From a virus (taxonomy: Duplodnaviria; Caudoviricetes): a stretch of 55,642 nt of DNA. Under the pieces are notes generated by a model that was not told the origin of the DNA, did not search any database, and was given only the letters and a program-made list of their open reading frames with translations. Of this stretch, positions 3,480 to 47,114 are shown piece after piece; within the stretch, counting starts at the first letter, position 1, and each line of letters begins with the position of its first letter. The stretch lies in the IMG/VR virus record IMGVR_UViG_3300037042_000951, positions 1-55,642 of that record. The stretch is one strand, 5' to 3'. The position numbers were made by a program, and so were the translations under genes.

Positions 3480-3503
3480 ATCACACCTCCCGTTATGATT
3501 GAT

Positions 3504-3531
3504 TTCAATAGTCGTTGAACTCTTATTTAAG
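3504..3531. promoter_or_regulatory. 28-bp double-palindrome element, copy 2
   Basis: TTCAAT-AGTC-GTTGAA-CT-CTTATTTAAG. Confidence 0.7.
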
Positions 3532-3585
3532 GAATTGTTCCGACCGCTTGGATTGGCTTCTATTTTGTGCGCCTCTCCAGTAATC

Positions 3586-3608
3586 ATTATACCACATACT
3601 TTACATAT
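3586..3608 (-). promoter_or_regulatory. Extended -10 promoter (TGGTATAAT), copy 2
   Basis: Identical 23-mer to 1744-1766. Confidence 0.75.
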
Positions 3609-3681
3609 AATAGGCTTCTATCTGACTTTTTTAGGAGGGTCTTCTTGCTGATATTAGGCAAGATGCCAGTTTTTAGCGGTG

Positions 3682-4065: not shown

Positions 4066-4099
4066 ACTTCGCCAATACATTGTCTACAAGATGAGGCAC

Positions 4100-4127
4100 T
4101 TCAACACCTGTTGAACTCTTATATAAG
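4100..4127. promoter_or_regulatory. 28-bp double-palindrome element, copy 3
   Basis: TTCAAC-ACCT-GTTGAA-CT-CTTATATAAG. Confidence 0.7.
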
Positions 4128-4243
4128 GGGCTTGCCTAGGAATGGGCTTGGCGTTTTGCGTTGCGTCAGCAAAGGTATGTATATTAGATGCCACGCTTGA
4201 TTGCGCGCGCGAGGACAGATAACTGGTCTCATTTTCAGGACAC

Positions 4244-4276
4244 AAAAAAAGGGGAGAGAGCCTAAGCCCTCCCCCC
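4244..4276 (-). terminator. Rho-independent terminator
   Basis: GGGGGGAGGGC-TTAG-GCTCTCTCCCC followed by T7, downstream of 4293..4979. Confidence 0.85.
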
Positions 4277-4292
4277 TCAAAAACAATCTAGA

Positions 4293-4979
4293 TTACTTCT
4301 TAAATACAGCGTTGAAAGCCTGTATTGCTTTGTCTAACTTAGTGACATCTGCAAATTCGTCACCCTTAGCCTTAGCATTTTTGCAACGGGTTTTCATGGT
4401 ATCAAAAACCCCCTTATCGTTATAGAGCCATTCCATGAAAGCTAAATTACCTTTGCGTTGAGTAGTTTCACCATTACGCTCTTTCAGGATTTTATTACCC
4501 TCCGCTACTAATTTTTTGTAAGTAGTGGTTTCATACTTGTTGCAATCGGTGCGAATATCTGCAACGATTTTATGCAATGCTGGGCAATGAGTTTCTTTAA
4601 TCTTGCCCGCTTGTTGCTGGGTAAAACTAAACGCATAATCCACCCCGATATTTTTTAACTCAGGCTTTTTAGGCATTTCAATACCCTGTATTTGCATATC
4701 GCTGACCTTGATATACTTATCCTCAATAATGCAATACTGAATAGCGGGATTTAATTCTGAATGTTTACGCTTATAACCAGAGCGTATGCTCAAAATATCC
4801 TCGTCGCTAACATTATCAGGAAAACCCTTTACATGGTCTAACGCCCATGTAGCTAACTGTTTAACAGATTGCAAAACCCCGCCATGCCTATAACCTAAAT
4901 CAGGCAAGCTAGTGGGTTTATTAGAGTTACCAATTACAGCACCTTGCTCAAGGGCATTAACGAGCTTGGTTTTAGTCAT
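4293..4979 (-). CDS. Early hypothetical protein (monocistronic unit)
   Basis: 228 aa; own promoter (5050-5078), SD AGGGAG and terminator. Confidence 0.8.
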   Translation of the reverse strand: MTKTKLVNALEQGAVIGNSNKPTSLPDLGYRHGGVLQSVKQLATWALDHVKGFPDNVSDEDILSIRSGYKRKHSELNPAIQYCIIEDKYIKVSDMQIQGIEMPKKPELKNIGVDYAFSFTQQQAGKIKETHCPALHKIVADIRTDCNKYETTTYKKLVAEGNKILKERNGETTQRKGNLAFMEWLYNDKGVFDTMKTRCKNAKAKGDEFADVTKLDKAIQAFNAVFKK

Positions 4980-5049
4980 ATGACTATCTCCCTATTTATG
5001 CAATGAGTGGCAGATTGAAAGTAATCGACATCACTCAAGGCATGGCTAA

Positions 5050-5078
5050 ATTATGCGTTATCCCATGGGATTTGTAAA
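5050..5078 (-). promoter_or_regulatory. Sigma70 early promoter TTTACA-N17-CATAAT, copy 1
   Basis: Near-consensus boxes with 17-bp spacer; duplicated at 6389-6417. Confidence 0.8.
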
Positions 5079-5082
5079 GTAT

Positions 5083-5110
5083 TTCACCTTATGTTGAACC
5101 CTTATTTAAG
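5083..5110. promoter_or_regulatory. 28-bp double-palindrome element, copy 4
   Basis: TTCACC-TTAT-GTTGAA-CC-CTTATTTAAG, immediately upstream of the -35 box. Confidence 0.65.
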
Positions 5111-5172
5111 GAAATGTCTGCAAGCTCGCACACGCACACGAGGCACACGCTCGAAGACAAATAACTGGTATC

Positions 5173-5197
5173 AAACCCCACCACCGAAGTGGCAGGG
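5173..5197 (-). terminator. Terminator-like hairpin with cUUCGg loop
   Basis: CCCTGCCAC-TTCG-GTGGTGGGG-TTT after 5204..5413; the U tail is short. Confidence 0.65.
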
Positions 5198-5203
5198 CTG
5201 AGG

Positions 5204-5413
5204 TTACTGCGTCAATTCAAAGCTTGTTGCAAAGTAATCACAAACACCAGCCCTGATATAAGCATCAGGACCATCACCGATCTGCTTGGCGCGGATCGAA
5301 TCAATAAATACATCCCAATCGTTGCGCTTTACTGGGTCATTCAAGTCAAACCGAATTGTTTGAACATTTTGCATACCCGCTACGCGATACGTTACAACAG
5401 CAAATGATTTCAT
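5204..5413 (-). CDS. Early hypothetical protein
   Basis: 69 aa; SD AGGGAG supplied by repeat 5415-5466. Confidence 0.75.
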   Translation of the reverse strand: MKSFAVVTYRVAGMQNVQTIRFDLNDPVKRNDWDVFIDSIRAKQIGDGPDAYIRAGVCDYFATSFELTQ

Positions 5414-5414
5414 C

Positions 5415-5466
5415 TTAACTCCCTATTTAAAATGCGGGTGAAGCGCACCCGCTACGCTACTACTTA
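5415..5466 (-). repeat. 52-bp intergenic repeat (stop-hairpin-SD), copy 1
   Basis: 50/52 identical to 5802-5853. Confidence 0.92.
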
Positions 5467-5799
5467 CCAGAGGGACACTTTACTTCCGTCTGCATACACG
5501 ATGTACTGATTACCCTCTTCATCTACATGTTCTGTATATGTGCCTTGGTCAGTACGCTCAACCCACACTGCGCCAATTACTGAGGGAAAGTATTCCTGCC
5601 CAGCACATGGTGGATCATATAAAACACTACCAAAAGAATTAACGATATCTTCGCTAATTGGCTTTACAAATACCCTGCCTGTACTACTAGGCTTATGTGG
5701 TGGTGTGATGCCCTGAACTACTACTAACTCACCACGAAAGGTTTTAACTACATCACCAAGTATTACTGGGCTACCAGTATCTTCGTAAACTAATTGCAT
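5464..5799 (-). CDS. Early hypothetical protein (probable start MQLVYEDT)
   Basis: ATG at 5799 follows the SD in repeat 5802-5853. Confidence 0.75.
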   Translation of the reverse strand: MQLVYEDTGSPVILGDVVKTFRGELVVVQGITPPHKPSSTGRVFVKPISEDIVNSFGSVLYDPPCAGQEYFPSVIGAVWVERTDQGTYTEHVDEEGNQYIVYADGSKVSLW

Positions 5800-5801
5800 G
5801 A

Positions 5802-5853
5802 TTAACTCCCTATTTAAAATGGGGGTGAAGCGCACCCCCTACGCTACTACTTA
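5802..5853 (-). repeat. 52-bp intergenic repeat (stop-hairpin-SD), copy 2
   Basis: Differs from copy 1 only by one compensatory base pair in the stem. Confidence 0.92.
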
Positions 5854-6336
5854 GTCACACTGGATTGCGTACTTATCCTGTTTGACTAGCTCACTGCTTA
5901 CTACAACTTTACGGCATGTAGGACTGTCTGACTTTACAGTCGCATCTACTCGGACGTTAAACCCATCAAACTGAAACCGATAAACACGGTTCAGTAGCTC
6001 AGCATAGTCATGAGAGCTAACATCCCTGCTACCATCCAACGTTGCGAAGTACCACAACATACTAGCTAGACGATCGTCTTTAAAACTGTCTAGACCTGCT
6101 ACATAAAAAGCAAGTGACGGCTGACAGTAGGTAGCATCTACTCTGCACACTAGCGAATACTTTTCGCTATCCCAGCGATCACCTACAGGTTCAGGGCAAA
6201 CCATCTTGATGATGTGAGTCAACTGACGGCGCACTGCTTGCAACTGCTTGGCATTATTGCCTAGGCTATTACGGCTACGGATAATGTCTGCCTTGGCTTC
6301 GTCTAACAACTGTACTGCTGATGAAGTATTCTTCAT
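5851..6336 (-). CDS. First early gene, hypothetical protein
   Basis: 161 aa, SD AGGGAG, downstream of promoter 6389-6417. Confidence 0.8.
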   Translation of the reverse strand: MKNTSSAVQLLDEAKADIIRSRNSLGNNAKQLQAVRRQLTHIIKMVCPEPVGDRWDSEKYSLVCRVDATYCQPSLAFYVAGLDSFKDDRLASMLWYFATLDGSRDVSSHDYAELLNRVYRFQFDGFNVRVDATVKSDSPTCRKVVVSSELVKQDKYAIQCD

Positions 6337-6388
6337 TTGAATCTCCCTGTTGGGTTACTGGATCAAGCCAATCTCGATCCATGACTAA

Positions 6389-6417
6389 ATTATGCCTTAG
6401 CTGATAGGATTTGTAAA
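6389..6417 (-). promoter_or_regulatory. Sigma70 early promoter TTTACA-N17-CATAAT, copy 2
   Basis: Same boxes and flanks as 5050-5078. Confidence 0.8.
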
Positions 6418-6435
6418 GTATTTGGCTGGGCGCGA

Positions 6436-6746
6436 CCCCACCTACCCCCATCCCCCCATTTGGCTCAGATGGGACCCGCTCACCCCACACCCCATAAAGA
6501 ACACAAATAACTCCTCATTTTTCCAAATACACTCGGCATTAAGTACGTAGCCTTTCCTCTCCTAAACATTTCTCTAACCACATTTACTGAGTCATAAGTG
6601 GTGAATTTCCTCTAAGAATTGGCAGCAAGACGTACCTAGCCTTCCCATCATCTATAACACCCTCCCCCCATACATTCATAACCCCCACCCCCGTTAATTA
6701 ACACTAAAAGACTTTACATATATCTCGTTTATAGAAACACCCCCCG
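6436..6746. other. C-run-rich non-coding region at the divergence point (candidate genome end / packaging site)
   Basis: Many C4-C6 runs on the plus strand between the divergent early and terminase genes. Confidence 0.4.
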
Positions 6747-6832
6747 TCATCTTTTTTCAAGGTACTTGTTTCCTCTAATATTATTTTGTTGTACACTTCA
6801 GACATCTAGGGTTTTACGATGACCGAGAGTAG

Positions 6833-7393
6833 ATGGAAAATATAATCATTCCTCATATAGAAGAGGACGTACCGCTTCCAGCCAACGCTACCGAAGCCTT
6901 TCCAGAACTGTCTCCAAAAGAAGAGCTAGACGCCAGAGCAAGGACAATTACATTACTTGCCGAATTAAACAACACCCCACTTTATCCCACTGCTGAGCAT
7001 GTGGCACAGGCAACACAAATTGCCACTCAAATGATGAATGATCCAAAGGCTAGACCTGAGTTTAAGAACTATCCCAATGAGACATTGGCTTATTTGGCAG
7101 GTATGGTGTCCCAAATGAACGTGCAACTTGTGGACGACCTAGCTGAAATGAAGATGTATGTGGTCAATAAGCTGCTTTATGAGGTAGAACATGCTTCAAA
7201 TGCCAAAGATAGGCTCAGAGCCTTACGGGATTTGGGTGAAGTAGACGGAATTGACGCATTTAAGAAGCGTTCTGAGGTCACAATGAAGGTACAAAGCATC
7301 GAAGAGGTCGAAAAAGAGCTATTTGAGACGCTTTCTAGTCTAAAAAGTAAGGCAATTGACGTAGAAGTTAGAGAAGTCAAGCCTAAAAAATGA
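6833..7393 (+). CDS. Putative terminase small subunit
   Basis: Helical 186 aa protein, ATGA-coupled directly upstream of TerL. Assigned by position. Confidence 0.6.
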   Translation: MENIIIPHIEEDVPLPANATEAFPELSPKEELDARARTITLLAELNNTPLYPTAEHVAQATQIATQMMNDPKARPEFKNYPNETLAYLAGMVSQMNVQLVDDLAEMKMYVVNKLLYEVEHASNAKDRLRALRDLGEVDGIDAFKKRSEVTMKVQSIEEVEKELFETLSSLKSKAIDVEVREVKPKK

Positions 7394-8916
7394 GCGCCCA
7401 GCGTAAATTAACTAAAGAAGACATCGCAGAGATTGAAAAAGCGGTCCCTGGTATGCCGCCAGACGAGAAAAGGCGGACTTTAAAGCTACTCAAGACTTAT
7501 AAATCTGAAACTGTTAAGAAAGACGGCAAGGAAAACTTCCTTGAGTTTATTGACCATGTATATCCAGGCTATAAAGTAGGTGAACACCATGCGAAATTGG
7601 CTAGAATCTTTGAAGAAATCGCTGCAGGCAAGAAGAAGCGGGTTGTTGTTAACATTGCGCCGCGTCATGGTAAGTCAGAACTTATATCCTACCTCGCTCC
7701 TGCCTGGTTCTTGGGTAAGTATCCACATAAGAAGGTCATTATGGCTTCGCATACGGCTGATCTTGCTGTCAATTTCGGTCGTAGAGTTAGGAATCTCGTG
7801 GGTTCAGACTCTTATAAAGAAATATTTCCAGCGGTAGAACTGCAAGCCGACAGTAAATCGGCATCTAGATGGGGGACTAACTACAATGGAGAATACTTTG
7901 CTATTGGTGTTGGTGGTGCTTTGGCTGGTCGTGGTGCAGATCTATTTATCATTGACGACCCTCACTCTGAGCAAGACGCTAAACAGGGCAGAGCTGACGT
8001 TTTTCTACCAGCTTGGGAGTGGTTTCAATCTGGTCCTATTCAGCGTCTTATGCCTGGCGGGGCTATTATTGTCGTGATGACCCGTTGGTCAAAGCTTGAT
8101 TTGACAGGGCAAATTGTCAATCATATGGTCAAAAATGAGGATGCAGAAGACTGGGAAATAGTAGATTTTCCTGCGATTATGCCTTCAGGTAAACCGCTTT
8201 GGCCCGAATTCTGGTCTCTTGAAGAGTTATTAGCAAAGAAGGCTTCTTTGGATGTGCGGTACTGGAATGCCCAGTATCTACAACAACCTACCTCAGAAGA
8301 AGGCGCTTTAATTAAACGGGAATGGTGGCAAATTTGGGAAAAAGATGACCCACCCATGTGCGAATTTGTCATTATGTCTTTAGACGCAGCTCAGGAGGCA
8401 AACAATCGTGCGGATTACAATGCGCTCACAACGTGGGGGGTGTTTCTCAACGAAGAAACGAACAACTACAACATTATCCTACTCAATTCCATTAAAAAAC
8501 GGTTGGAGTTCCCAGACCTCAAAAAGCTTGTACTTGAAGAGTATAAGGAGTGGGAGCCAGATGCGTTTATGGTTGAAAAGAAGTCCAATGGGGCGGCTCT
8601 CTACCAGGAATTACGGCGCATGGGTGTACCAGTCGGGGAATTCACACCTGGCAAAGGTCAAGACAAAATCTCTCGCGTTAATGCTGTATCAGATTTGTTC
8701 TCAGCAGGGATTGTCTGGTCGCCAGAGCATCGGTGGGCGAAGGAAGTAATTGAAGAATGTAATGATTTCCCTAGCGGAGCGAACGACGATTTGGTAGACT
8801 CCACTACACTAGCCCTATTAAGATTTAGGCAGGGTGGATTTATTCGCCTGCCCAGTGACGAACCAGAAGACGATTTTTTATATAAATACGGCAGACGTAA
8901 AGCTGCGTATTACTAA
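7390..8916 (+). CDS. terL: Terminase large subunit
   Basis: Walker A APRHGKS, Walker B FIIDD, VMTRW motif, RNase H-like SLD...DDLVD. Confidence 0.96.
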   Translation: MSAQRKLTKEDIAEIEKAVPGMPPDEKRRTLKLLKTYKSETVKKDGKENFLEFIDHVYPGYKVGEHHAKLARIFEEIAAGKKKRVVVNIAPRHGKSELISYLAPAWFLGKYPHKKVIMASHTADLAVNFGRRVRNLVGSDSYKEIFPAVELQADSKSASRWGTNYNGEYFAIGVGGALAGRGADLFIIDDPHSEQDAKQGRADVFLPAWEWFQSGPIQRLMPGGAIIVVMTRWSKLDLTGQIVNHMVKNEDAEDWEIVDFPAIMPSGKPLWPEFWSLEELLAKKASLDVRYWNAQYLQQPTSEEGALIKREWWQIWEKDDPPMCEFVIMSLDAAQEANNRADYNALTTWGVFLNEETNNYNIILLNSIKKRLEFPDLKKLVLEEYKEWEPDAFMVEKKSNGAALYQELRRMGVPVGEFTPGKGQDKISRVNAVSDLFSAGIVWSPEHRWAKEVIEECNDFPSGANDDLVDSTTLALLRFRQGGFIRLPSDEPEDDFLYKYGRRKAAYY

Positions 8917-28088: not shown

Positions 28089-28922
28089 ATGCCATATTCT
28101 TCTTTAAAACTCGATTTAATGGTTACTGGTACCCAAAACAACCTTTGGGGGGACATTACAAATCTTAATATTGGAACAGCGCTTGAAGAAGCTATTGTTG
28201 GTAGAGCATCAGTAGTAATAGCTAATCCGCCAGCGTCTCCTCTAGCTGCAGATTTAACTTTAGTTGATTCCCCTGCTAGTCAAGTGGCTAGACATTTTAT
28301 ATTAGATATAACTTCAGCGGGCACTTTAGTTTCTACGCAAACTGTTCAAGTACCATCAATTGATAAGCCCTACATTATAGAAAACAACACTACAGGCGGG
28401 CAAGCGCTTTTAATTAAAACTGCTGGTGGTGCTGGAGTTACAGTCCCAGCTGGTACTAAAACACTAGTGTATGCATACAATGATGGTGTATCTAATAACG
28501 TAGTTTATGGAATTAATTACCTAAGTGCTCCTACTATTACAGGAGGAACTTTTACAGGCCCAACATTAAGCCAACCTATAACTAACGGTGGTAAATTAGT
28601 AGTAAGTGCTCTTGGTACTTTATTTACAGGTACAACAACTATTAATCTAGCAATTGCTCAGGTCTATACAGCCACTATAACTGCTAGTAATGTAATTACT
28701 TTTGCGTTTTCTAATGCACCACCAGCTGGGCAGTCTCAAGTAGTTTTACTACGATTAACAAACGGCGGTAGCGGAACAATAGTCTGGCCCGCAGGTACTA
28801 AGTTTGCAAACGGAGGCACTGCTCCATCTCTAACAATATCTGGCGTAGATATGCTAGGTATTTATTATGACGTTACTACAACTACATATATGGTATTTGT
28901 TATTGGGACAGACATACAATGA
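28089..28922 (+). CDS. Tail fibre/baseplate-like structural protein
   Basis: WGDITN N-terminal module; C-terminal ..WP...F.GG.AP.L....VD module typical of fibre proteins. Confidence 0.65.
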   Translation: MPYSSLKLDLMVTGTQNNLWGDITNLNIGTALEEAIVGRASVVIANPPASPLAADLTLVDSPASQVARHFILDITSAGTLVSTQTVQVPSIDKPYIIENNTTGGQALLIKTAGGAGVTVPAGTKTLVYAYNDGVSNNVVYGINYLSAPTITGGTFTGPTLSQPITNGGKLVVSALGTLFTGTTTINLAIAQVYTATITASNVITFAFSNAPPAGQSQVVLLRLTNGGSGTIVWPAGTKFANGGTAPSLTISGVDMLGIYYDVTTTTYMVFVIGTDIQ

Positions 28923-31456
28923 GTTCTGAACTTTTAATTATGGGTAGTTCACCACAGTCTTATACATTAGATGCGTGGGGTCAAAACCCAAGGGGACAGC
29001 TTGGAGAAAATCCACATTATTTTGGGTTTCAACAACTAACAACAGGGGCGTTATCTACAGAAAATTTTGTTCAAGTCGAGAGTTGTGGTTTTGCTCATTT
29101 TGCTTTAACTAGCGGGGGAAACTTATATGGCTGGGGCAATTCAGAAGCTATAGGAAGTGGTGTTTTTCTTAATTATGTTAGTTATTTAACACCCCAGTTA
29201 GTATTGTCTAATGTAGCCAAGTTTTCTATTGGGAATGGGCAGTTTGCTTCTCCCTCCGCTGATTATATAGTTATGGCTATTAAAACAGACGGCACTTTAT
29301 GGATGACAGGAAACACTAATTACAATTGGGGGAGAACCTCGTTTACATATGCTACAGATTGGAATATATGGACCCAAGTAAATACGGTTGGGTCAATTTG
29401 TCAAAAAGTATCAGTTTCTAAAAATGATTTTGGGACTAGTAGTTTATTTGCGTTATTACTAAAAACTGACGGCACTATGTGGGCTATAGGAAACAATGCT
29501 AATGGGCAGCTAGGGCAAGGCAATACAACTAGTAATTTTGCTGTTTTTCAGCAAGTAAAAGGTACTGGTGGGGTTGGATTTTTAACTAACGTTGTTGATA
29601 TATCTGCAGGCGGATACAGTTCATATGCTGTTATTAGTTCTGGCGCTGCTTATGGGTGGGGGCTTAACAGTAATGGAGAAGTTGGTGATGGGACTACGTT
29701 TCCAACCAATGTAACTTCGCCTTCACAGATTAAGTATGGGGCTGTTTTAGGTGGTGCTAATGTATCTACAGCTGAAAAAATATTTGCATGGAGTAGGGGT
29801 GCATACATAACTGTAACGCCAGGATCAGGTCCAGTTGCCTATCAATTAAAAACTAATTTATATGGGTGGGGTAAAGCAGATAGTACTAACCTCGCACTAA
29901 CTGATTTTTGGGCTGGTTCTAGTACAACTGCTGCGCTACCTATAATCGGGGCTAAAAATTCAATAGGTGCACTTCTTCCTGAGCCACTTACTGTTACTAA
30001 AGTGATGGGGTCTTTATTTGCAAATACAGCAATTATAACTAGTGGTGGTTTGTTGCTTAATTGGGGTGGTATTGCTAATAATGCGTGGGGGCAAGCTGGT
30101 AGAAGCGAAGCTCTTCAATATGGCAGTATTTTATACCCAACAGCTGTAGATGCTGCCACAAATTGGTCTTTTATACCTGAAGTAGAAGCTGCTACAAACG
30201 ATTTTACCTATGGGTTTAGCGCACCCGCAGCTCATACGTTAGCTGGCAAGTCAAATAATAAAATTTATGGAACAGGGGCTAATATTCAACAGTCATTCGG
30301 TATATATAATAAAAATAATAGCCCTACTCAAATTGGAACAAATCGCCAATGGATAACTTTATCTTCTGGTGATGACGAAGTTAGTCTATTTATAAATAAT
30401 CAAGGTGAACTTTATGGTGTTGGAAATAACACTCTTTCGCCACTTGGAAATTTAGGAAGTCCATCTCGCTTTTCGCCTACACAGTTATCTGCCATAACTA
30501 CTCCGTGGGTTGACGTTTCTACAAATGGTTATTCAAGCGCAGCTATTCTTAAAGGCGGTATTTTATATGCTTGGGGATATAACAATCAAGGCGAGTGTGG
30601 TTCTGGTGTACCAACTATTACTTCAATTTCGCAAGTAATAAACTATACTGGGGGACTTCCAACTAGTGGAGCATTATCTGTATTTATGGGTGGCTTTATT
30701 AGTCAGGGGTGGAGTTCTGTTCTTTACGATAACGGAAAAGTTTATACTTCTGGCAGTAATTTATATTATACGCTTGGTAATGGCGGTGGTGGCATTTTTA
30801 ACCGTGTTTTTTTTGCTCCAGTTCAAGATTACACTTTTAATGATTTACAAAATGTAGAAAAAGTTTGGTATGGTTATGCCCATGCTTTCGCTAAATTAAG
30901 TGTCGGTGATCCAGCATCTGGTGGCAACAATATATTTGCGTGGGGGGATAATAGTACAGGCGCACTAGGAGTTGGAAACACAAGTGTTTATACTCGTGCA
31001 ACACCATCTGGTGTATATAATCCTTTCCTTGAAATAACAAAAATTGTAGGTGGAGATGGATTTTCTATAGTCCTTTTTGCTGACGGAACCGTTGAAGCGA
31101 CGGGGACAAATACTTATGGGCAGTTAGGTAACGGCACTACCACGAATACTACGGTATTTGCTCCTGTAAGAAATTCAACTAATACGGCGGATTTAATTGA
31201 TGTTGTTGATATTGGTGCTACCCGCGACTCCGCATTTGCTGTTCTCTCAAATGGTGACGTTTTCTTATGGGGGAGAAACACTATAAATACTGGGTTTCCA
31301 GCTAAAACAGCTGATCCTTATTATGGGCTTCTTGTTCCAAGTGACAACACAGCGTTTTTTACATTACCTACATTAGTTGGAAATTACCCAAACGTAGCTT
31401 CTATACCAACAACTCCTACAGCAATTAATGCTGCTTTTTTATTAAGGAATATATGA
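28919..31456 (+). CDS. RCC1/BLIP-II repeat beta-propeller protein (probable receptor-binding protein)
   Basis: Repeated DGTxWxxGxNxxGQLG units. Confidence 0.85.
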   Translation: MSSELLIMGSSPQSYTLDAWGQNPRGQLGENPHYFGFQQLTTGALSTENFVQVESCGFAHFALTSGGNLYGWGNSEAIGSGVFLNYVSYLTPQLVLSNVAKFSIGNGQFASPSADYIVMAIKTDGTLWMTGNTNYNWGRTSFTYATDWNIWTQVNTVGSICQKVSVSKNDFGTSSLFALLLKTDGTMWAIGNNANGQLGQGNTTSNFAVFQQVKGTGGVGFLTNVVDISAGGYSSYAVISSGAAYGWGLNSNGEVGDGTTFPTNVTSPSQIKYGAVLGGANVSTAEKIFAWSRGAYITVTPGSGPVAYQLKTNLYGWGKADSTNLALTDFWAGSSTTAALPIIGAKNSIGALLPEPLTVTKVMGSLFANTAIITSGGLLLNWGGIANNAWGQAGRSEALQYGSILYPTAVDAATNWSFIPEVEAATNDFTYGFSAPAAHTLAGKSNNKIYGTGANIQQSFGIYNKNNSPTQIGTNRQWITLSSGDDEVSLFINNQGELYGVGNNTLSPLGNLGSPSRFSPTQLSAITTPWVDVSTNGYSSAAILKGGILYAWGYNNQGECGSGVPTITSISQVINYTGGLPTSGALSVFMGGFISQGWSSVLYDNGKVYTSGSNLYYTLGNGGGGIFNRVFFAPVQDYTFNDLQNVEKVWYGYAHAFAKLSVGDPASGGNNIFAWGDNSTGALGVGNTSVYTRATPSGVYNPFLEITKIVGGDGFSIVLFADGTVEATGTNTYGQLGNGTTTNTTVFAPVRNSTNTADLIDVVDIGATRDSAFAVLSNGDVFLWGRNTINTGFPAKTADPYYGLLVPSDNTAFFTLPTLVGNYPNVASIPTTPTAINAAFLLRNI

Positions 31457-38568: not shown

Positions 38569-40467
38569 ATGAGTTTATCCCAAGCCCTTAAAGAAACAGT
38601 ACACGACAGTAAAAATCTAGATCTGTTAGCTAATTTGCCACAAACTTTGATTATTCAGATGGGGCAAAGAAAAGAACTTACGCCTGAAGAAGTTACTTTA
38701 ATTATTGGTAAAAAAGGGCAGCAAATTGAAGAGGCGGCGCAACGCAAAGCATTAGCACAGGTCAGCGAACAACCCATGCCAAGCGTCATAGAACAGAAGA
38801 TGATGCAGATTGCTCAGGCTGAGAACCCAGCTCCAGAGCCACAAATGCAGCCACAAATGATGGCTGAAGCACCTATGCCTCAGTTACCAGAAGAGGTAGG
38901 TATTGCCCAGAACCCCGTGCCCCCTATGCAGATGGCTGGTGGCGGAATTATTTCGTTTAGTGGCGAAGATGGTAGCTACGTTGAAGAAGACGATGACGAC
39001 GACGAGACTGATGCTCTAATCTTCGGTTTGTTGCAAAAGATGCGATCTAGTTCAGGTCGGGCTACTCCAAGCGTTGGTATTGCTAGTGGGTATGAAGATA
39101 GAGAAGAGCGCTCAGGCGATATGGTAGACCGTCTACGAGCACAGATTATGGCTAAAGAAAGTGGTGGACGACGCTATGATAAGTCTGGCAAATTGCTTAC
39201 CTCTTCTAAAGGGGCTGAAGGCGAAATGCAGGTTATGCCCTACACCGCAAGAGACCCAGGTTTTGGTATTAGACCAGCTAGAGACGGCAGTCCTGACGAG
39301 CTACGGCGCGTAGGTGATGAGTATGCAGAGGCTATGTATAACCGCTACGGTGACTCTAAACTGGCTATGATTGCCTACAACATGGGACCTGGAGCTACTG
39401 ATAAATGGCTGGCTTCTGGCGCTGACCCACGCAGGCTACCAAAAGAAACCCAAGGGTATATCCGTGGCGTAAGCCTTGCCGAAGGTGGCGAGGTTAAAGG
39501 CTATGCAGGACCAGAAGGTAGCGTAGTAGAAACGGAAGAGCCAAGTTCTGTATTTGATAGGCTATTCGGGGGCGGTGATCGCCTTAAAGAGTATCAAGAT
39601 AGATTAGCTAGACAACAAGAATTTGAGCGGGTTACTCGTGAGCAACCTGGATTCTTCCAAAAGACTACTAGCGCAGAACGTAACAAAGCTGAAGCTGACT
39701 TAGCTGCCGCAGAAGCAGCACGTAGAGGACCACGTTCTGCTAAACCTTCTGGGGAAACTTTTGTAGACCCAAATATTACTGCACTGCAAAAAAGAAAAGA
39801 TTACGACAAAAAAATAGATACTAGCGGAGAGGGGGTTCAAAACTTAGTCGCTGCTAAAAAAGAAGAACTAACTCCAGAGCAAGAGCTGTTTAACGAAATA
39901 CGTGCTGACATGAAGGCACGAAGAGCAGCTTTAGCAGAAGATAGGAAGATGGATAAGTGGCGAGCTGGTTTAGCTGCTGGCGCTAAAATGATGATGAATA
40001 CATCTCCTTATACTATGGTAGGACTTGGTAGTGGGGTTGATGCAGGAGCGCAGTCTATGGCTGAGTCTAAAAAACTTCGTGCCGCAGAAGAAGCTGGCAT
40101 TGCCACTGGAATGGGTAGCCTGTATAAAAATCAATTGATTTCAAAACTAAAAGATGCACAAATATCTGATACCAAAGCATTTAGAGAAACCCAATTAAAT
40201 GACGCTCGAATCAAATCCACAGAAACTAGATTAGCTGAAGCGCTTAGAAACCCTAATAATCTACGCCAACAACAAATGCTTGATATTTACGAAATGCAAT
40301 TTAGTCAAGGCAAATTAGATAAAGATAAACTGCCTGAGCTTCAAAGACTAAGAGCTTGGCGAACAAATCTTGAGGCGGGTATTAGAAATAGAATGGCATC
40401 TGGTGGTGGCGGTGCGGGATATACACCAACTCAAACACAAACTGCGGCTCTTAACAAGTATTCATAA
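38569..40467 (+). CDS. Ejection protein with an SLT lytic transglycosylase domain
   Basis: KESGG...GAEGEMQVMP...AYNMGPG...ETQGYI (GH23 motifs). Confidence 0.88.
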   Translation: MSLSQALKETVHDSKNLDLLANLPQTLIIQMGQRKELTPEEVTLIIGKKGQQIEEAAQRKALAQVSEQPMPSVIEQKMMQIAQAENPAPEPQMQPQMMAEAPMPQLPEEVGIAQNPVPPMQMAGGGIISFSGEDGSYVEEDDDDDETDALIFGLLQKMRSSSGRATPSVGIASGYEDREERSGDMVDRLRAQIMAKESGGRRYDKSGKLLTSSKGAEGEMQVMPYTARDPGFGIRPARDGSPDELRRVGDEYAEAMYNRYGDSKLAMIAYNMGPGATDKWLASGADPRRLPKETQGYIRGVSLAEGGEVKGYAGPEGSVVETEEPSSVFDRLFGGGDRLKEYQDRLARQQEFERVTREQPGFFQKTTSAERNKAEADLAAAEAARRGPRSAKPSGETFVDPNITALQKRKDYDKKIDTSGEGVQNLVAAKKEELTPEQELFNEIRADMKARRAALAEDRKMDKWRAGLAAGAKMMMNTSPYTMVGLGSGVDAGAQSMAESKKLRAAEEAGIATGMGSLYKNQLISKLKDAQISDTKAFRETQLNDARIKSTETRLAEALRNPNNLRQQQMLDIYEMQFSQGKLDKDKLPELQRLRAWRTNLEAGIRNRMASGGGGAGYTPTQTQTAALNKYS

Positions 40468-40469
40468 CT

Positions 40470-43400
40470 ATGGCTGATTTACAACAGCTATATAGCGCCC
40501 TAGAAAAAGCGGATGCTGCTGGTGATGTTGCGTCTGCTAAACAACTAGCCGACTGGATACGTGCTGAACAAGGCGGATTTAGCCCAGCTGCACCAGAAAA
40601 ACTTGAACTACCCCCTGTAGAGCCAGCAACTGGTTTCAGTTCTTTTATTCCCGCCGTTAAACGTGGCGCGTTGGGTCTCCAGTCGCTTGTGGCAGACGTA
40701 GCACCAGCAATGGCTGGGCGTGTAGCAGAGCGTCTAAATGTACCTGGCGCAAAAGAATATGCTGACCGCCAGATGCGTGAGGCTCAGGAAGCCCAAGAGT
40801 ATATACAACAGCGCTATCCCTCAGCCGTATCTAGTTATAAAGACATCAAGGGCGGGGGCGACTTACTAACATACGTAGTTGAGTCGGTTGGCGAGTTACT
40901 TCCTTCAATGATTCCTTCTGTATTAACGGGTGGCGCAGCGGGTATTGCTGGGCGTGGTGCAGCCATTGCAGCTAGAGAGGCGGCTGAAAAAGCTTCGTTA
41001 GAGACCGCTAAGAAGAGCCTGCTCACGTACAGTGGGTCTAAGCTTTCCCAACAGGAATTAGTTAATTTAGCCACGGCAGACGCTATTAAAGCGGGCCAGG
41101 CTGCAGCACAGAGAGCGGTGCTCAAGTATCAAGCTGCTGGTGCAATAGGCGGTTCGGCTATGCAGAACGTACCTGAGGTTTATCAGAATATTGCTGAAGA
41201 AACAGGCAAGGAAGACCTTGGCGCTGCCCTTCTATTTGGCGGCTTTAACTCTGTACTAGATGCCATTACGCCTATAACCTTACTACGCAAAGCCAAAGGT
41301 GTTGGTCTTACCGAGAAAGAACTTATTGGCGCATGGTACAAGCGGGCAGGCAAAGGGGTATTAACTGGGTTTGCTACAGAAGGCGCAACGGAAGCAGTCC
41401 AAGAGATGTCGTCAGCTGCAGCTGAAAAGTTTGTTGACGAGAATAAGAACTTCTTTACTGAGAAGAATTTTGAGCGGTTTATCAATGCTGGACTCAAGGG
41501 TGGTATTGGTGGTGGCGCAGTTAGTGGTGTGGCAAACATACCGTTTGGTAGAAAAGAAGAACCACCTACGCCTTCTATACCTGAAACCCCTGAAGCCGTT
41601 ACCCCTGCAATGCCTGGCGCAGAGCCTGCTAAACAAGGTGCGCTTTCAAACGATGACATAGAGAAGTTTTTAAATCCTGAGGCAAAAGAAGAAGTTAAAA
41701 AAGAAGAAGCCAAGAAAGTAGACCTTGATTCAGATACTTTTGATATGCCTACTGCTTCAGAAAAAATTGCATCGCTAAAAGCAGATAACGACAGAATTCA
41801 GAATAAACTAGCTACAGGGCAATATAAAAACGCCCCAGCAGTTAGTGCTGCAAATGCAAAGATTGCTAGGCAGAAGACAGAGATAGAAACACTTGAAGCT
41901 AAATTAGCTGAAGGAGATAAAAATGTTACTGACAGAACTGACGTTACAGGAGGTGGAGTTAGCGCTGAAGTATCTGGCGGACCCAAACCAAGTGGAACCC
42001 CCGAAGAAATTGCAGCATCTGAGCGATCTGGAGTGGTTGACGCTGGAAGTGCTGCAGAGCAGGCTGCTGTTGGAGATGCAAAACAGCAAGGTACATTAAC
42101 TTCAACAAAAGTAATCCACGACAAAGAAAAAGATGTATGGAATTACAACGATGATAAAGAATTAGTTGAATCTGCGGGACCAACAACAGCTATACAACAC
42201 AAGTCGGGTATTGCTAAAGAACAAGGTATTACTAAAACATACATTGATGGCAATAGAGTTACTTTTGAACTAGACAACGGTGGGGACATTGCCGTTAAAT
42301 TTAATAAAGGTAGAACCTCTGTATATTTAAACAAACCAGACAAAATGATGGGTTTTAGACCTGCTGGGTCTTTTCATGAAGACATTGACAATATACAAAA
42401 AGACAGCACTACTTTTGGGTTTGATAAATTACAAGATTTTGTACCGCCTAAACTTGCAAAAGCAATTCAAAATGCAGCCAAGAATATTAGTAGCTCCACA
42501 AAAGAAGTTGCAGATCCTTCTGAATTTATTAAACCTTTCTTAAAAGAAGCTGTAGATTCTGACGGGTACTCTGCCTTATGGGGTGAAAGAGAAAAAAGCG
42601 CTGAACAATTTAAAAAAGAATTACAAGGACAAGGAACTGCGCCTACTACCAAAAAAACAGTTACTCCTACTACAACTAAAAAAGAAGAAGCTCCAGTAGA
42701 CCAAGCTACTTTAGTAATACCGCCTGGAGACAAAGAAGTAGCAACAGAAGTAACTCCGCCAAAGGCTGAATTTAAAGGTGAATCTGCGTTTACCTCAGGG
42801 ACAGAAAGACGGTTTATCGAGCCTAAAGTAACTGAAGAAACTTTATATCCTAAAGCTATTGCTTTACGAGAAGCACAAAAATCAAAGCCAAAACCTACTG
42901 TTGAAGAAGTTGCTAAAACTAAACAATCTGTCAAAAACGTTAAAGAGGCGGCAACAGATGTAATTTCTGGTAAAACAGCTGATAGATATAATGCTTTAAC
43001 CCCAGAAGAAAAGGCTATGGTGGACACCGCCGTAGCAAAATACAAGTCGCTATTGGAGTTTAAAGAAGCTAAACCCATGAGCAAGCGGAAGGAAAAACCT
43101 CCGCCAGGCGTTATTTATAAGCCAAGACAGTACAACAAAATACTCAAAGAAGAAAAAGCCGCAGCTGAGAAAGCCGCTACTGAACCTCCTGTACCTAAAA
43201 AACTGTCTCTGATAGAGGAAAGGATGGCTGAGCTTAGAGCTATTCCTTCTTATGGTTCCGCTAATCTAGAAGCAATAGAGGGATTGCGTGGCGGTACTAC
43301 GATTGGGCTTATGTCCAACCTAATGCATGGCGACTTGCGTGGTGCGCTGCAAGAAATAGTTCAAGATACATCTGGGCAATTTACTAAGCTAGATAGAATG

Positions 43401-46400
43401 GTAGCTAAACGCCTACTACAATCAGACACCCTACCTACCCTGCGTGTAGTGCCAACCAGCGAACTTAATGGTAAATTGGGGCAGTATGATGCAGCTACAG
43501 ATATAGCTTCTATTAGTGAAGACGCAATGACTTCACATGTTGTGCTACACGAGACACTACACGGATTTACCCTAGCTATCATCAAAGCGCACAAAGATGG
43601 AGTCAAGTTTAACCAAGGTGTTGCTAATCTTGAGAAGTTATACAACCATTTAAAAGAGACCTATCCAGACTTAAAAGATAAATATGGCATGAAGAACCTT
43701 GCAGAATTTGTCTCTGAGGCTATGTCTAACCCTGAATTCCAAGAGCAGTTAAATGCTCTCCCATACGAGCGTGGCAACTTAGTAATTAATGCTTTTGTTG
43801 AATTTGTTAAAGATGTTTTAAATGTACTTGGTATTGGTCCAGGTAAAGACTTTACAGCCCTAGCTTATGCCCTAGTGTCCGCAGAAAGTATATTAACTGA
43901 GGGGCGTAGATTAGAGGCTACAAACCCACCACCAGCAACGGCAGCCCTTGCACCAGATGCTACTGCTAGACCAGAACCTGAGCCACCTACATACAAAGAA
44001 GGAACTACCAATCTAAAAGAGTGGGCAACAAGCATACCTAAGGTTGCTGATACACCCGCTGCGTCAATTAAAAAAGCGCTTGGGGAAAATGAACGATATG
44101 GCACATTTCAACTCGTGGCAAAACTTTTACAAAATAGTCGCCGTGCTATACAAAACTGGGAGAACCGTCTAGAAAAAGCTAAAAAGATTATGTATTACGG
44201 CGAGAACCAAAACAATATATTTGGCGATATTAGCGCTTCTTCTGGTAGAGCTGAACACTTTTTTAACTTCTACCTTGCTACGGCTTCCAAAGATTTATAT
44301 GATGCAATTGGTAGATATGCTAACGCACGAGGTTTGTCAGATCAAGACGCTCTTATAGAATTACAACAAGTATTTGTTTCACTCCACGAACCAGAGCGCC
44401 GTAGAGCTAAGTATGTATTAAATGTTCCGTTGCCTTTAGAAGCAGCTATGGAACGTAAGAAGATTATGTCTTTGGTCAGGTCTAATCAGATCAATGAAGA
44501 ACAAGCTGAACGACTGAGAGCAAGACTAGACGCATTGGTAGAAAACCCTGCTAATAAATTAAAAGAAGGTGTTAAGGGATATGGCGCAAACCCAGATGAA
44601 GGATTTTCTTATCTTCCTCAAGACGAACAATCAGCCTACTATAACGTAGTCAGCGGAATTGACCCTAAAGTATTTAAGATGGCTATAACAGAACTATATG
44701 AGCCAAATAAAGCGTTAATTGACCCTATACAAAAAGCTATTAAAGTACTCCAAAAAGGAACTAAAGAGCTAGACACAAGAGCTAACTATTGGGCGCAACC
44801 TGTTAATAACGTAGTTGCATTTTACGGGTACGACAATTACGTGCCGTTTAAAGGTAAGCCTGGAGAAACACAAAGCAAAATAGATGACGAGTTAGAACCT
44901 CATGGCAAAGTTAATGGTAGAGAATTACAAGAAGCACCTTTTGCGTTTGAAGGTCGTTTATCTGATCCTGATAATCCTTTGCTACAGACTTTGGCTGACG
45001 GAGTTCGGTCCGCTTTACGTGCTGGGCGTGGCGGCACTATGTATGGGGCTGATGGTAAACCTCTACTAGATAGTAAGGGCGAGCCTACCCAGTTTGGTAC
45101 AACACACGCTATAGTAAACGCAATTAAACAAGGCTTGATTGAAGGCAAGCCTGTAGAGACTATAAGCTTTGCGCAACGGTATGATGCTGCAGTTTTAGAA
45201 AAGCTAAAACAAAAAGGCGAAAACAACTTCTTCCACTACAAACCAGACGGCAGTATTGAGATATGGTCAATTGAAGATAAGGCTCTAAGAGAAGCAATAC
45301 GCCGTACCTATCAACAAAACAATCCTTTAGTGGACACATTCTCTAGAATCACCAGCTGGATTGGTCAAGGACATACTCGCTACAACCCTGCTTTTGCGCC
45401 TAAGAACTTCGTTGCTGATACTTTGGCTAACGCTGGAATTATTGGTGCTGAACTAGGTGTAAGCAAGTTTGGGGGAGTTATAGGAGAAGTAGCTAAAAAC
45501 GGTCTAGGCAAAGCCTTCACGTTCTCACGGTTGTATGGCGCTAAGAATTTTGCAGAAATAGAACGTTTAGCCAAAACTGATGACTACATCAAAGACATGT
45601 ATGAGTATGTCAAGGGTGGTGGAAAAGTATCTTACGTATCAGGTATTGGTGCGCAAAGCCAATTCCAAAGGATGCAAGAGACGCTTGGAAGATCCAAAAT
45701 AGCCTCCACTAAGGAACAGATTGATTCAGTTATTGATACCTTCTGGGCAGAGCCTTTTGAATTGGCAAGCCGTGTAGCCGCTTATAGGGTGACTAAAGCA
45801 GATTACATTAACAACCAAAAAATGAGTCCAGAAGCAGCTAAGACAAAAGCTATTTCATACGTCAAGAACCTAGCTAACTTTGAACAGACAGGTGATTACG
45901 GTAAAGCGTTGGGTGCATTCTTCGTGTTCTTCCGTGCGTCAGCAACTGGAGCAGTTAGAGCCATTGATGCTTTAGCGCCAATATTTGTAGACCCAAATAC
46001 TGAATTCCTAAGATTGCCAGAGTCAGTACGCTTGGACCCAGAGGCTAAGAAAACTTTCTTTGAGAATCATTACAAGCAACGCCGCACCGCCCAAGCCATG
46101 TTAGCTGCAATTGCTGGTACTGGGGTAATGGTTTATTACATGGCGCTACTAATGTCTGACGATGATGACGAAGGAAGAAACAGAACCGCTATAGATGACA
46201 TGGATAGATGGACTAGGTTTGCACGGTTCCCCATCCCAGGTACAGATGTAATCGTTCAGATTCCTTGGGGCTTTGGACTGGGTGCTTTTGCTGCAGCTGG
46301 GGCACAGGTCGCTTCGCTATTAGTAGGCAACAGTTCTTTTGGGCAAGTCTTTAACAATATTAAAGATGTTGGCATGGACTCTTTCCTGCCTTTACCTACG

Positions 46401-47114
46401 TCAAAAATTAACATGTTTGAGAACCCAGCAGCTTGGGCAATGGATTCAATTACCCCTTCGATTGCTAGACCGTTCTTTGAGTATGCGATGAACTTAGATG
46501 GATTAGGCAGAGAGATTTATAACAACCGTCAATCCCGTGTAGGAGATGCCTATACAGGCGGGGATAATATCCCTGAGCTATACAAAGATGCCGCTAGAAT
46601 GCTTGCAAACATTACAAATGGAGGCATAGACGTAAGCCCTAACACCATGTATTTCTTTGCAAACAATTATGTGGACGGTCTATCTAGGATTATCCATAAC
46701 AGCTACGGTATCGGTATGACAGCAGCAGGTCAGAAGCAGTTTAATCCCAAGACCGACACCATGATTCTTGATAGCTTCTTTGGCGCACCGTCTAACGTAG
46801 ATGCTAGAGAGTTCTCTAAGGTCGAGAACCAGATCAAAGAAAAAGAACGTAAGTTAAATATGTTCAAGAGCGACCCAATCCGCTATGCCGAGTATGTAGC
46901 TGCTAATCCGTTTGACGAAACCATCGTACAGATATACAACCAAAGTGTTGGGACAGGTTTAAATAAACTACGGGAACAGTCAAACATGTATCGTAAGATG
47001 CCTGACCTTAGCCCAAAAGATCGTAAAGAATTAGTTGATATGATTAAAGCTCAAGAGAACTTGTACAAGAGGCATTTAATAGGTGTGTTTGAAGCGTACG
47101 ATATTACGCCTTAA
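40470..47114 (+). CDS. Giant ejection/polyvalent protein with zincin-like HExxH and LPD38-like C-terminus
   Basis: 2214 aa; VLHETLHG...EFVSEAMSNPEF; C-terminal QIPWGFG..PFFEYAMN.DGLGREIY. Confidence 0.75.
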   Translation: MADLQQLYSALEKADAAGDVASAKQLADWIRAEQGGFSPAAPEKLELPPVEPATGFSSFIPAVKRGALGLQSLVADVAPAMAGRVAERLNVPGAKEYADRQMREAQEAQEYIQQRYPSAVSSYKDIKGGGDLLTYVVESVGELLPSMIPSVLTGGAAGIAGRGAAIAAREAAEKASLETAKKSLLTYSGSKLSQQELVNLATADAIKAGQAAAQRAVLKYQAAGAIGGSAMQNVPEVYQNIAEETGKEDLGAALLFGGFNSVLDAITPITLLRKAKGVGLTEKELIGAWYKRAGKGVLTGFATEGATEAVQEMSSAAAEKFVDENKNFFTEKNFERFINAGLKGGIGGGAVSGVANIPFGRKEEPPTPSIPETPEAVTPAMPGAEPAKQGALSNDDIEKFLNPEAKEEVKKEEAKKVDLDSDTFDMPTASEKIASLKADNDRIQNKLATGQYKNAPAVSAANAKIARQKTEIETLEAKLAEGDKNVTDRTDVTGGGVSAEVSGGPKPSGTPEEIAASERSGVVDAGSAAEQAAVGDAKQQGTLTSTKVIHDKEKDVWNYNDDKELVESAGPTTAIQHKSGIAKEQGITKTYIDGNRVTFELDNGGDIAVKFNKGRTSVYLNKPDKMMGFRPAGSFHEDIDNIQKDSTTFGFDKLQDFVPPKLAKAIQNAAKNISSSTKEVADPSEFIKPFLKEAVDSDGYSALWGEREKSAEQFKKELQGQGTAPTTKKTVTPTTTKKEEAPVDQATLVIPPGDKEVATEVTPPKAEFKGESAFTSGTERRFIEPKVTEETLYPKAIALREAQKSKPKPTVEEVAKTKQSVKNVKEAATDVISGKTADRYNALTPEEKAMVDTAVAKYKSLLEFKEAKPMSKRKEKPPPGVIYKPRQYNKILKEEKAAAEKAATEPPVPKKLSLIEERMAELRAIPSYGSANLEAIEGLRGGTTIGLMSNLMHGDLRGALQEIVQDTSGQFTKLDRMVAKRLLQSDTLPTLRVVPTSELNGKLGQYDAATDIASISEDAMTSHVVLHETLHGFTLAIIKAHKDGVKFNQGVANLEKLYNHLKETYPDLKDKYGMKNLAEFVSEAMSNPEFQEQLNALPYERGNLVINAFVEFVKDVLNVLGIGPGKDFTALAYALVSAESILTEGRRLEATNPPPATAALAPDATARPEPEPPTYKEGTTNLKEWATSIPKVADTPAASIKKALGENERYGTFQLVAKLLQNSRRAIQNWENRLEKAKKIMYYGENQNNIFGDISASSGRAEHFFNFYLATASKDLYDAIGRYANARGLSDQDALIELQQVFVSLHEPERRRAKYVLNVPLPLEAAMERKKIMSLVRSNQINEEQAERLRARLDALVENPANKLKEGVKGYGANPDEGFSYLPQDEQSAYYNVVSGIDPKVFKMAITELYEPNKALIDPIQKAIKVLQKGTKELDTRANYWAQPVNNVVAFYGYDNYVPFKGKPGETQSKIDDELEPHGKVNGRELQEAPFAFEGRLSDPDNPLLQTLADGVRSALRAGRGGTMYGADGKPLLDSKGEPTQFGTTHAIVNAIKQGLIEGKPVETISFAQRYDAAVLEKLKQKGENNFFHYKPDGSIEIWSIEDKALREAIRRTYQQNNPLVDTFSRITSWIGQGHTRYNPAFAPKNFVADTLANAGIIGAELGVSKFGGVIGEVAKNGLGKAFTFSRLYGAKNFAEIERLAKTDDYIKDMYEYVKGGGKVSYVSGIGAQSQFQRMQETLGRSKIASTKEQIDSVIDTFWAEPFELASRVAAYRVTKADYINNQKMSPEAAKTKAISYVKNLANFEQTGDYGKALGAFFVFFRASATGAVRAIDALAPIFVDPNTEFLRLPESVRLDPEAKKTFFENHYKQRRTAQAMLAAIAGTGVMVYYMALLMSDDDDEGRNRTAIDDMDRWTRFARFPIPGTDVIVQIPWGFGLGAFAAAGAQVASLLVGNSSFGQVFNNIKDVGMDSFLPLPTSKINMFENPAAWAMDSITPSIARPFFEYAMNLDGLGREIYNNRQSRVGDAYTGGDNIPELYKDAARMLANITNGGIDVSPNTMYFFANNYVDGLSRIIHNSYGIGMTAAGQKQFNPKTDTMILDSFFGAPSNVDAREFSKVENQIKEKERKLNMFKSDPIRYAEYVAANPFDETIVQIYNQSVGTGLNKLREQSNMYRKMPDLSPKDRKELVDMIKAQENLYKRHLIGVFEAYDITP
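41923..42099 (+). CDS. Nested +1-frame 58-aa protein inside the giant gene
   Basis: SD AAGGAG 6 nt before ATG; MLLTELTLQEVELALKYLADPNQVEPPKKLQHLSDLEWLTLEVLQSRLLLEMQNSKVH. Confidence 0.6.
   Translation: MLLTELTLQEVELALKYLADPNQVEPPKKLQHLSDLEWLTLEVLQSRLLLEMQNSKVH

Follow-up and report, generated by a model that had tools for sequence, protein, structure and literature searches.

A 58-codon open reading frame (ORF) lying wholly inside the gene for a 2214-amino-acid (aa) virion protein, in its +1 frame, is very probably a genuine protein-coding gene that is translated independently of the giant gene around it. The window, by which we mean the whole stretch of DNA analyzed here, is a tailed-phage record of 55,642 nucleotides (nt) (IMG/VR record IMGVR_UViG_3300037042_000951; 55.6 kb, estimated completeness 88%), and the nested ORF occupies positions 41923 to 42099 within a host gene whose product is a putative ejection protein. 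The original prediction, made from the letters of the window alone, had proposed a real nested gene at this place. Comparative analysis strongly supports that proposal: the ORF and its signals were found in 55 of 58 orthologues, and omega was 0.18 in the nested frame versus 1.29 in the main frame of the host gene. In the mechanism we propose, ribosomes would start at an internal Shine-Dalgarno (SD) sequence and ATG on the late structural mRNA, and the product would be an acidic protein of ∼57 aa, with two main helices and a proline-containing loop, whose surface would display conserved Leu, Trp, and Glu positions.

Nested ORF and its initiation signal

The SD sequence of the nested ORF, AAGGAG, is followed by the spacer ATAAAA (41917 to 41922) and the ATG at 41923, and the distance of this ATG from the start of the big gene, with (41923 − 40470) mod 3 = 1, assigns the ORF to the +1 frame. 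The arrangement claimed in the original prediction, AAGGAG-ATAAAA-ATG opening a 58-codon +1 ORF inside the 2214-aa gene, was confirmed at 41911 to 42099 (Table 1). The initiation signal of this ORF is unusual in the window, unlike its length. With respect to length, the same gene contains four +1-frame ATG ORFs of 55 to 58 codons and one 96-codon TTG ORF. With respect to the signal, AAGGAG occurs at seven sites on the + strand of the window, and four of these have an ATG at a spacing of 4 to 9 nt; three of the four pairs are the starts of large structural genes (12043, 14425, and 16214), and the fourth is the start of the nested ORF. A promoter and terminator scan of positions 41300 to 42400 returned one promoter-like site, against 1.7 expected in shuffled sequences, and gave no support for a separate transcript.

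Conservation of the nested frame in orthologous loci

Relatives of the window were gathered with the big protein only, blind to the nested ORF. Viral contigs contributed 6 loci to the sample, and metagenome contigs contributed the best 80 of 107 confirmed loci; identities spanned 32 to 96%. Including the window, of which L001 is a copy, these 87 loci yielded 82 distinct big ORFs, 58 of them 5′-complete. To find the nested ORF, all loci were translated in six frames and searched with a peptide profile, which was then rebuilt from 56 distinct sequences. Eighteen 5′-truncated loci without a match, in which 631 to 1865 aa were available, were excluded from the absence count.

The nested ORF was present in 55 of the 58 distinct 5′-complete orthologues, which come from uncultured phages, and 60 of 61 distinct nested matches lay at +1 relative to the longest open frame. 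Only L063 departed from this: its big ORF (2029 to 8143) is split in two frames, and the piece from 2029 to 3897 (623 aa) has the nested ORF in its own +1 frame; the split may be a frameshift, a sequencing error, or genuine. Throughout the first six loci, the +1 frame was open, AAGGAG or GAGGAG preceded an ATG (GTG in L005), and the ORFs shared a common end position. Across six aligned orthologues, 26 of the 58 columns of the nested frame were invariant, versus 6 in the main frame over the same stretch.

The 56 distinct nested sequences, 55 to 67 aa in length, start with ATG (48 sequences), GTG (5), or TTG (3), and their stop codons (TAG in 30, TAA in 25, and TGA in 1) stand at the same place. 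An SD-like core of at least 4 nt was found within positions −17 to −3 of the start in all 56 (AAGGAG in 27, AGGAG in 9, GAGG in 7, GGAG in 5, AGGAGG in 4, AGGA in 3, and AAGG in 1), a tally somewhat biased toward our claim by a start-choice rule that favored SD-bearing candidates. An absence of the open +1 frame and SD from homologous linkers, which would have spoken against the original prediction, is therefore not what we see; orthologues keep the SD, the start, and the stop, as expected if that prediction is right. In L079, a high-GC relative with a very different codon composition, the nested gene (2268 to 2502) was still recognizable to the second-round profile (E = 2.4e-9).

Among 1.84 billion proteins, a profile of six nested sequences matched 66 cluster representatives (50% identity) at E ≤ 1e-3, most of them 48 to 111 aa long and matching through to the C terminus. 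Judged by these matches, the nested family appears to be large yet sporadically called as a gene. Standard gene callers disallow nested genes on the same strand, and this is the probable reason that the family is missing from annotated phage genomes, Pfam, and PHROGs. The original prediction had suggested tBLASTn of the peptide as a check, and here the outcome was divided: homologues emerged from six-frame translations of the orthologous loci, whereas neither the region, by blastn, nor the peptide, by tblastn, had a match among 50,697 phage records. A scan of viral contigs with an alignment of six peptides produced 599 pattern matches, none of which was confirmed by tblastn; this route is insensitive, since L002 to L007 carry the gene. 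Likewise, none of 141 pattern matches was confirmed when genome contigs were scanned with the big-protein alignment.

Selection on the two frames

Substitutions were counted in 20 independent sequence pairs of 4 to 34% divergence, with our own simplified procedure in the spirit of the overlapping-gene method outlined in PMC4316641. Rates, expressed as substitutions per site, were 0.347 for changes silent in the nested frame and replacing in the main frame, 0.047 for changes silent in the main frame and replacing in the nested frame, and 0.061 for changes replacing in both. Changes silent only in the main frame were thus 7.3-fold rarer than those silent only in the nested frame (bootstrap range, 5.0 to 14.1), which is the suppressed variation that the original prediction had proposed to look for. 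The omega values of 0.18 and 1.29 come from the same 20 pairs.

The variability of codon positions gave a similar picture. In pairwise comparisons over the overlap, main-frame codon positions 1, 2, and 3 had variabilities of 0.529, 0.491, and 0.318, the inverse of the pattern over the final 330 aa of the big protein, which served as a control (0.363, 0.262, and 0.605). Amino acid identity over the same bases was 0.428 in the nested frame versus 0.254 in the main frame, and the nested value was the higher in 1535 of 1540 pairs, in a comparison that leans toward our claim by its use of a nested-frame-guided alignment. Among 13 well-supported variants in environmental contigs, 8 were silent only in the nested frame, 3 were silent only in the main frame, and 2 were replacing in both.

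Taken together, these data show purifying selection on the amino acid sequence of the nested frame, and the overlapped main-frame segment is free of amino acid constraint, required merely to stay open. The asymmetry claimed in the original prediction, with constraint on the nested frame and a passive linker in the main frame, is borne out by both the omega values and the inverted variability. Direct-antisense coding, which similar variability at codon positions 1 and 3 had raised as a candidate, was rejected: the antisense frame was open in none of the 56 sequences.

Chance and control tests

An open +1 frame does not by itself make a gene. It could be a by-product of a hydrophilic linker poor in codons with T in the second position, or the stretch could be conserved as an RNA structure or recombination site. 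+1 ORFs of such length are indeed common in the big gene, and the homology island described below coincides with module boundaries, like a recombination joint. However, when the main-frame protein was held fixed and its codons were synonymously recoded, the +1 frame was left open in just 2.0% of trials for the window and in 5.9% on average for the family. Constraint on the nucleic acid would predict neither the 7.3-fold excess of changes silent in one frame nor the conservation of an SD, a start codon, and the place of the stop, and it would not predict a confidently folded product. The other +1 ORFs of the big gene, moreover, decay in orthologues. Across 17 sequences, the nested ORF at 41923 contained 0 stops; the ORFs at 41485 and 42376 were intact and aligned nowhere but in the window and, at most, its two nearest relatives, L008 and L014; the ORF at 44902 was broken in 6 of the 17 and, although open in the others, showed no sequence conservation; and the 96-codon TTG ORF was broken outside L008 and L014. 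We therefore regard it as very improbable that there is no gene here.

The converse recoding, with the nested proteins held fixed, left the main frame open in just 1.1% of trials, which argues that main-frame openness is itself selected. Since recoding leaves either frame open only rarely, both frames are actively maintained, the nested one for its sequence and the main one for its openness. The composition of the main frame can be read in the same light. As the original prediction had described it, the main frame over the overlap is a low-complexity G/A/S/T linker (G 10, A 9, V 7, S 6, T 5, E 5, D 4, and P 3 of 59 residues), with a G+A+S+T+P fraction of 0.57 (family mean, n = 56) versus 0.36 for the whole big protein. 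Because recoding yields a fraction of 0.45, this “low-complexity linker” is largely a shadow of Leu/Glu/Gln codons read one base earlier.

Programmed frameshifting from the main frame, which would join an N-terminal module to the helical peptide, or give a trans-frame big protein, without separate initiation, is if anything harder to credit than the absence of a gene. Phage structural genes do use programmed frameshifts (for example, the annotated P2 E/E′), and prfB illustrates that a +1 shift can be promoted by an SD within the gene. In most loci, however, a stop 0 to 5 codons upstream of the start closes the nested frame, and because this stop abuts the ATG in L030, L033, L035, and L050, frameshift entry has no room in these loci. 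The start codon is also retained in 56 of 56 sequences, and the window junction shows no zero-frame stop or slippery run.

Predicted properties of the nested product

The peptide encoded in the window has a calculated mass of 6.8 kDa and an isoelectric point (pI) of 4.9. Across the family (n = 56), pI ranged from 4.1 to 5.8 in all members, the mean net charge was −4.4, and Leu made up 23% of residues. In the 52-sequence alignment of the nested family, L30 was invariant, and L6, E12, A14, L18, P27, L33, W38, L48, and E51 were at least 90% conserved. This alignment (A3) and the 47-row alignment of the big protein (A4) were hand-picked from ∼120 and 73 sequences, respectively. From the 52-sequence alignment, AlphaFold2 predicted a fold with a mean predicted local distance difference test score of 86.9 and a predicted template modeling score of 0.67. 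The model consists of a short helical turn at residues 2 to 5, main helices at residues 8 to 19 and 35 to 54, and a proline-containing loop at residues 20 to 34, in good agreement with the two helices and proline linker that the original prediction had drawn from the peptide.

Searches with the window peptide matched 0 families in Pfam and PHROGs. A sequence profile search of the PDB with the nested family had a best E value of 0.062, to a leucine-rich repeat; the best E values from Foldseek against pdb and BFVD were 2.5 to 2.6; the best Z score from VIA-align wide, 5.2, was under the typical background of 7 to 8; and the best ESM Atlas feature score, 0.88, was to unnamed clusters and under the meaningful level. 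A weak match to phrog_5825 (unknown function; 208 positions) in 10 of 52 members (best E = 0.022), not found in the window or in the Vibrio phage record, was treated as coiled-coil-like noise. A co-fold that paired the nested peptide with the last 655 aa of the big protein yielded neither support for a pairing nor evidence against it. The present data likewise bear neither way on the candidate roles that the original prediction had ventured, namely a chaperone or inhibitor of the HExxH domain or an exclusion factor.

A conserved island between mosaic modules

The surroundings of the nested gene are mosaic. In the comparison of window positions 40470 to 43300 with loci L015 to L076, the part of the big ORF that precedes the nested gene (350 to 520 aa) sorted into at least seven groups, between which blastp similarity was slight or absent. 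The 400 aa downstream were almost equally mosaic, and only the C-terminal ∼1000 aa were common to all. Ungapped nucleotide identity among the 56 sequences followed the limits of the nested gene: 0.32 to 0.34 upstream of the SD, 0.50 in the SD region, 0.38 to 0.54 inside the nested ORF, 0.82 at its stop codon, and 0.31 to 0.34 after the stop. Homologous pieces in contigs from public freshwater runs likewise start at 41911, the first base of the SD, and end at 42098.

Host gene and genomic context

The host protein matches the Pfam domain LPD38 (PF18857) at aa 1913 to 2087 (E = 6.1e-18; 66 bits versus a cutoff of 27). It also carries an HExxH motif, of which H1027, E1028, and H1031 were invariant in an alignment of six orthologues; no Pfam peptidase model matched the big protein. 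LPD38-type proteins of comparable size are regarded as phage “polyvalent” proteins, a class defined in the available text of PMC5512222. For one LPD38-bearing protein, phi24B gp47 (2811 aa), packaging and ejection have been proposed (bioRxiv 10.64898/2026.04.10.717836), and another such protein, PTXU04_00025 (2198 aa), is described as required for efficient infection (bioRxiv 10.1101/2023.09.18.558157), as far as the accessible parts of these two reports go. Because LPD38 proteins of this size are regarded as polyvalent, one of them proposed to be ejected and one needed for infection, “ejection gene” is a reasonable, if putative, label for the host gene. The ATG of the big gene stands 2 nt past the upstream stop (40465 to 40472) and has no SD, which suggests translational coupling to the gene for the 632-aa lysozyme-like virion protein directly upstream. 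Besides the genes listed in Table 1, PHROG matches mark further virion proteins, and the replication genes lie on the minus strand.

Table 1. Coordinates of the nested gene, its host gene, and other features of the window
Feature	Position	Strand	Basis or remark
SD sequence AAGGAG of the nested gene	41911..41916	+	sequence; 6 nt before ATG
Probable nested gene, 58 codons + TAA	41923..42099	+	+1 frame of 40470..47114
Main-frame stretch under the nested gene, ~aa 485-543 of the big protein, G/A/S/T/P-rich linker	41922..42098	+	
Stretch of the big gene, variable by insertion and deletion, that directly follows the nested stop	42099..42682	+	
Host gene, 2214-aa virion (putative ejection, “polyvalent”) protein	40470..47114	+	ORF list; closes the structural module
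HExxH motif (H1027-E1028-x-x-H1031) of the big protein	43548..43562	+	translation
LPD38 domain of the big protein	46206..46730	+	Pfam; aa 1913-2087
Other +1-frame ORFs of the big gene, 55-96 codons	41371-41661, 41485-41661, 42376-42543, 44902-45069		not conserved
Lysozyme-like virion protein, 632 aa, directly upstream of the big gene	38569..40467		PHROG match
Terminase	7390		PHROG match
Portal	8926		PHROG match
Major head protein	start 14425		PHROG match

Possible functions of the nested product

The nested product may be a core morphogenetic or ejection factor acting on the product of its host gene, a reading that we put at a little under an even chance. As a dedicated partner or chaperone, it would maintain a long, membrane-active, and partly disordered ejection protein in a state fit to be packaged or released. 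We favor a core role because the gene is retained almost universally, under strong constraint, in a structural operon, and because it has been retained through wholesale exchange of the neighboring modules. A further reason is that the proteins of embedded phage genes, Rz1 for example, usually work together with the protein that the surrounding gene encodes, as described in the available text of PMC6139136.

Several observations weigh against the gene itself or against this reading of its function. Three complete big ORFs (L082, L084, and L087) carry no comparable nested ORF in any frame; together with the 5′-cut L081, they form one clade with an SH-like approximate likelihood ratio test value of 100 in a quick IQ-TREE tree with midpoint root. 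The nearest cultured phages match only the C-terminal third of the big protein, at ∼23% identity, and a homologous nested ORF was absent from the one cultured relative examined, a Vibrio phage; the phage records searched yielded no cultured carrier of the gene. The N-terminal domain of the big protein (aa 50 to 365) is weakened as a candidate partner, since a profile built on the window domain failed to detect it in many loci where the nested gene is present. Sequence, family, and fold searches with the nested protein matched no known chaperone, and the leanings of the SD tally and of the identity comparison, noted above, count against the gene. Finally, overprinted viral proteins are often accessory factors, a point that also speaks for the next possibility.

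A real gene whose product works independently of the ejection protein, for instance in host takeover, counter-defence, superinfection exclusion, or lysis timing, is a tentative alternative that deserves serious weight. The linker would then be merely a tolerant birthplace, which suits the unconstrained main-frame stretch. The small, acidic character of the protein also fits, as does the way in which the flanking modules of the big protein swap freely while the small gene stays. No link to the big protein was detected, either in the sequence, family, and fold searches or in the one co-fold with the C-terminal 655 aa. We further counted in favor of this alternative the proposal that polyvalent proteins act in host conflicts, made in the available text of PMC5512222. 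Accessory and counter-defence genes, however, are usually patchy and turn over fast, whereas the nested ORF is kept in nearly all 5′-complete orthologues across 32 to 96% identity, with its low omega; its place in a late structural operon, without a convincing promoter of its own (1 site versus 1.7 expected), also sits poorly with an independent role.

It is also conceivable, though we think it unlikely, that the 188-nt unit formed by the SD and the nested gene is the oldest and sole fixed element of the first ∼1000 codons, that the giant ORF reads across it, and that the unit is doubly used. Its first use would be to encode an essential small acidic partner of the ejection machinery; its second would be as a homology joint that recombines swappable N-terminal and middle modules onto the constant C-terminal half. 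On this view, the G/A/S/T “linker” would be the younger frame and a passive one, so that the direction of classical overprinting would be reversed.

Identity with a diverged P2 gpE-type tail-assembly chaperone (Phage_TAC_7, PF10109), suggested by a match of P0006 over residues 16 to 47 (23.3 bits versus a cutoff of 25; E = 6.6e-05), was rejected at the sequence-profile level and has next to no probability, given that just 1 of 52 members matched at E ≤ 1, that hhalign gave probabilities of 0.26% for the 52-sequence alignment against P2 gpE and 0.13% for the 56-sequence alignment against 10 gpE-type proteins, and that the gpE profile found no nested member below E = 0.46.

Relation to known systems

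Phage late genes are already known to harbor nested +1 genes. In Rz/Rz1 and the embedded spanins, as portrayed in the available text of PMC6139136, a small gene with its own SD and start lies wholly inside the +1 frame of a larger late gene, as here, and the less constrained or structured frame tolerates the overlap, also as here; in the spanins, both products act together. The present case differs in that the host gene encodes no i-spanin but a ∼2200-aa virion protein, putatively ejected, with an LPD38 domain. Unlike an Rz1-like o-spanin, the nested product has neither signal peptide nor lipobox; Cys is missing from the window peptide and from 45 of 56 members. Furthermore, the ordered, conserved partner is here the nested product, and the disordered one is the host-gene segment.

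Overprinted viral genes, as characterized in the accessible parts of PMC8227390 and PMC4316641, also combine two frames, asymmetric selection, and one disorder-promoting partner. In contrast, the overlap described here lies in a large double-stranded DNA tailed phage, where coding-space pressure is weak, and the embedded frame rather than the long frame carries the constraint. For this last reason, the long ORF may have grown across an older small gene, rather than the small gene having been born within the long one. With LPD38 polyvalent proteins the host gene shares a domain match above cutoff, an HExxH motif, comparable size, and a position in the virion module. The LPD38 polyvalent-protein literature searched does not mention a nested gene; in the available text of PMC5512222, “nested” is used in a structural sense only and “overlapping” occurs 0 times. 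We found no description of the nested family, the host gene class, or the inverted asymmetry in the literature searched.

Type III secretion co-chaperones are very small, acidic, amphipathic-helical proteins encoded beside the gene of a large protein that is exported unfolded or extended. The nested protein resembles them, by analogy, in size, acidity, and amphipathic helices, with no sequence or fold match.

Dual coding is unusually clean here for a large double-stranded DNA phage, and the gene boundaries coincide with mosaic module junctions of a giant protein. If the product is a partner of the ejection protein, it would supply the assembly or ejection factor that has been missing for a class of proteins important for infection in at least one coliphage, according to the accessible part of bioRxiv 10.1101/2023.09.18.558157; if it is an accessory protein, it would be a widespread new small phage effector. 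Under either model, there is a case for frame-aware comparative screens of long phage structural genes.

Environmental contigs and other observations

The nested stretch or close variants of it occurred in runs of many studies, most of them labeled freshwater. Directly downstream of the nested stop, the big gene varies by insertion and deletion: an abundant environmental contig (run X3) has 14 nt in place of the 584 nt at 42099 to 42682, an in-frame loss of 190 codons, and L008 and L014, whose big proteins are 92% identical, are without this stretch too. A 152-nt contig from the freshwater metatranscriptome run X19 covers 41963 to 42098, the last two-thirds of a related nested gene, at 88% identity and ends at its stop; at most it hints at transcription of the region, the library may contain DNA, and we did not count this contig as expression.

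In the clade of L082, L084, and L087, the first ∼1200 aa of the big protein are unrelated to those of the other orthologues, and an extra ORF lies directly upstream of the big ORF (1000 to 1100 aa in L082 and L087; 589 aa in L084). Elsewhere in the window, positions 28919 to 31456 encode an 845-aa tail-region protein that lies beside tail-fiber-like genes and has strong PHROG matches to “regulator of chromosome condensation” (RCC1-like repeats).

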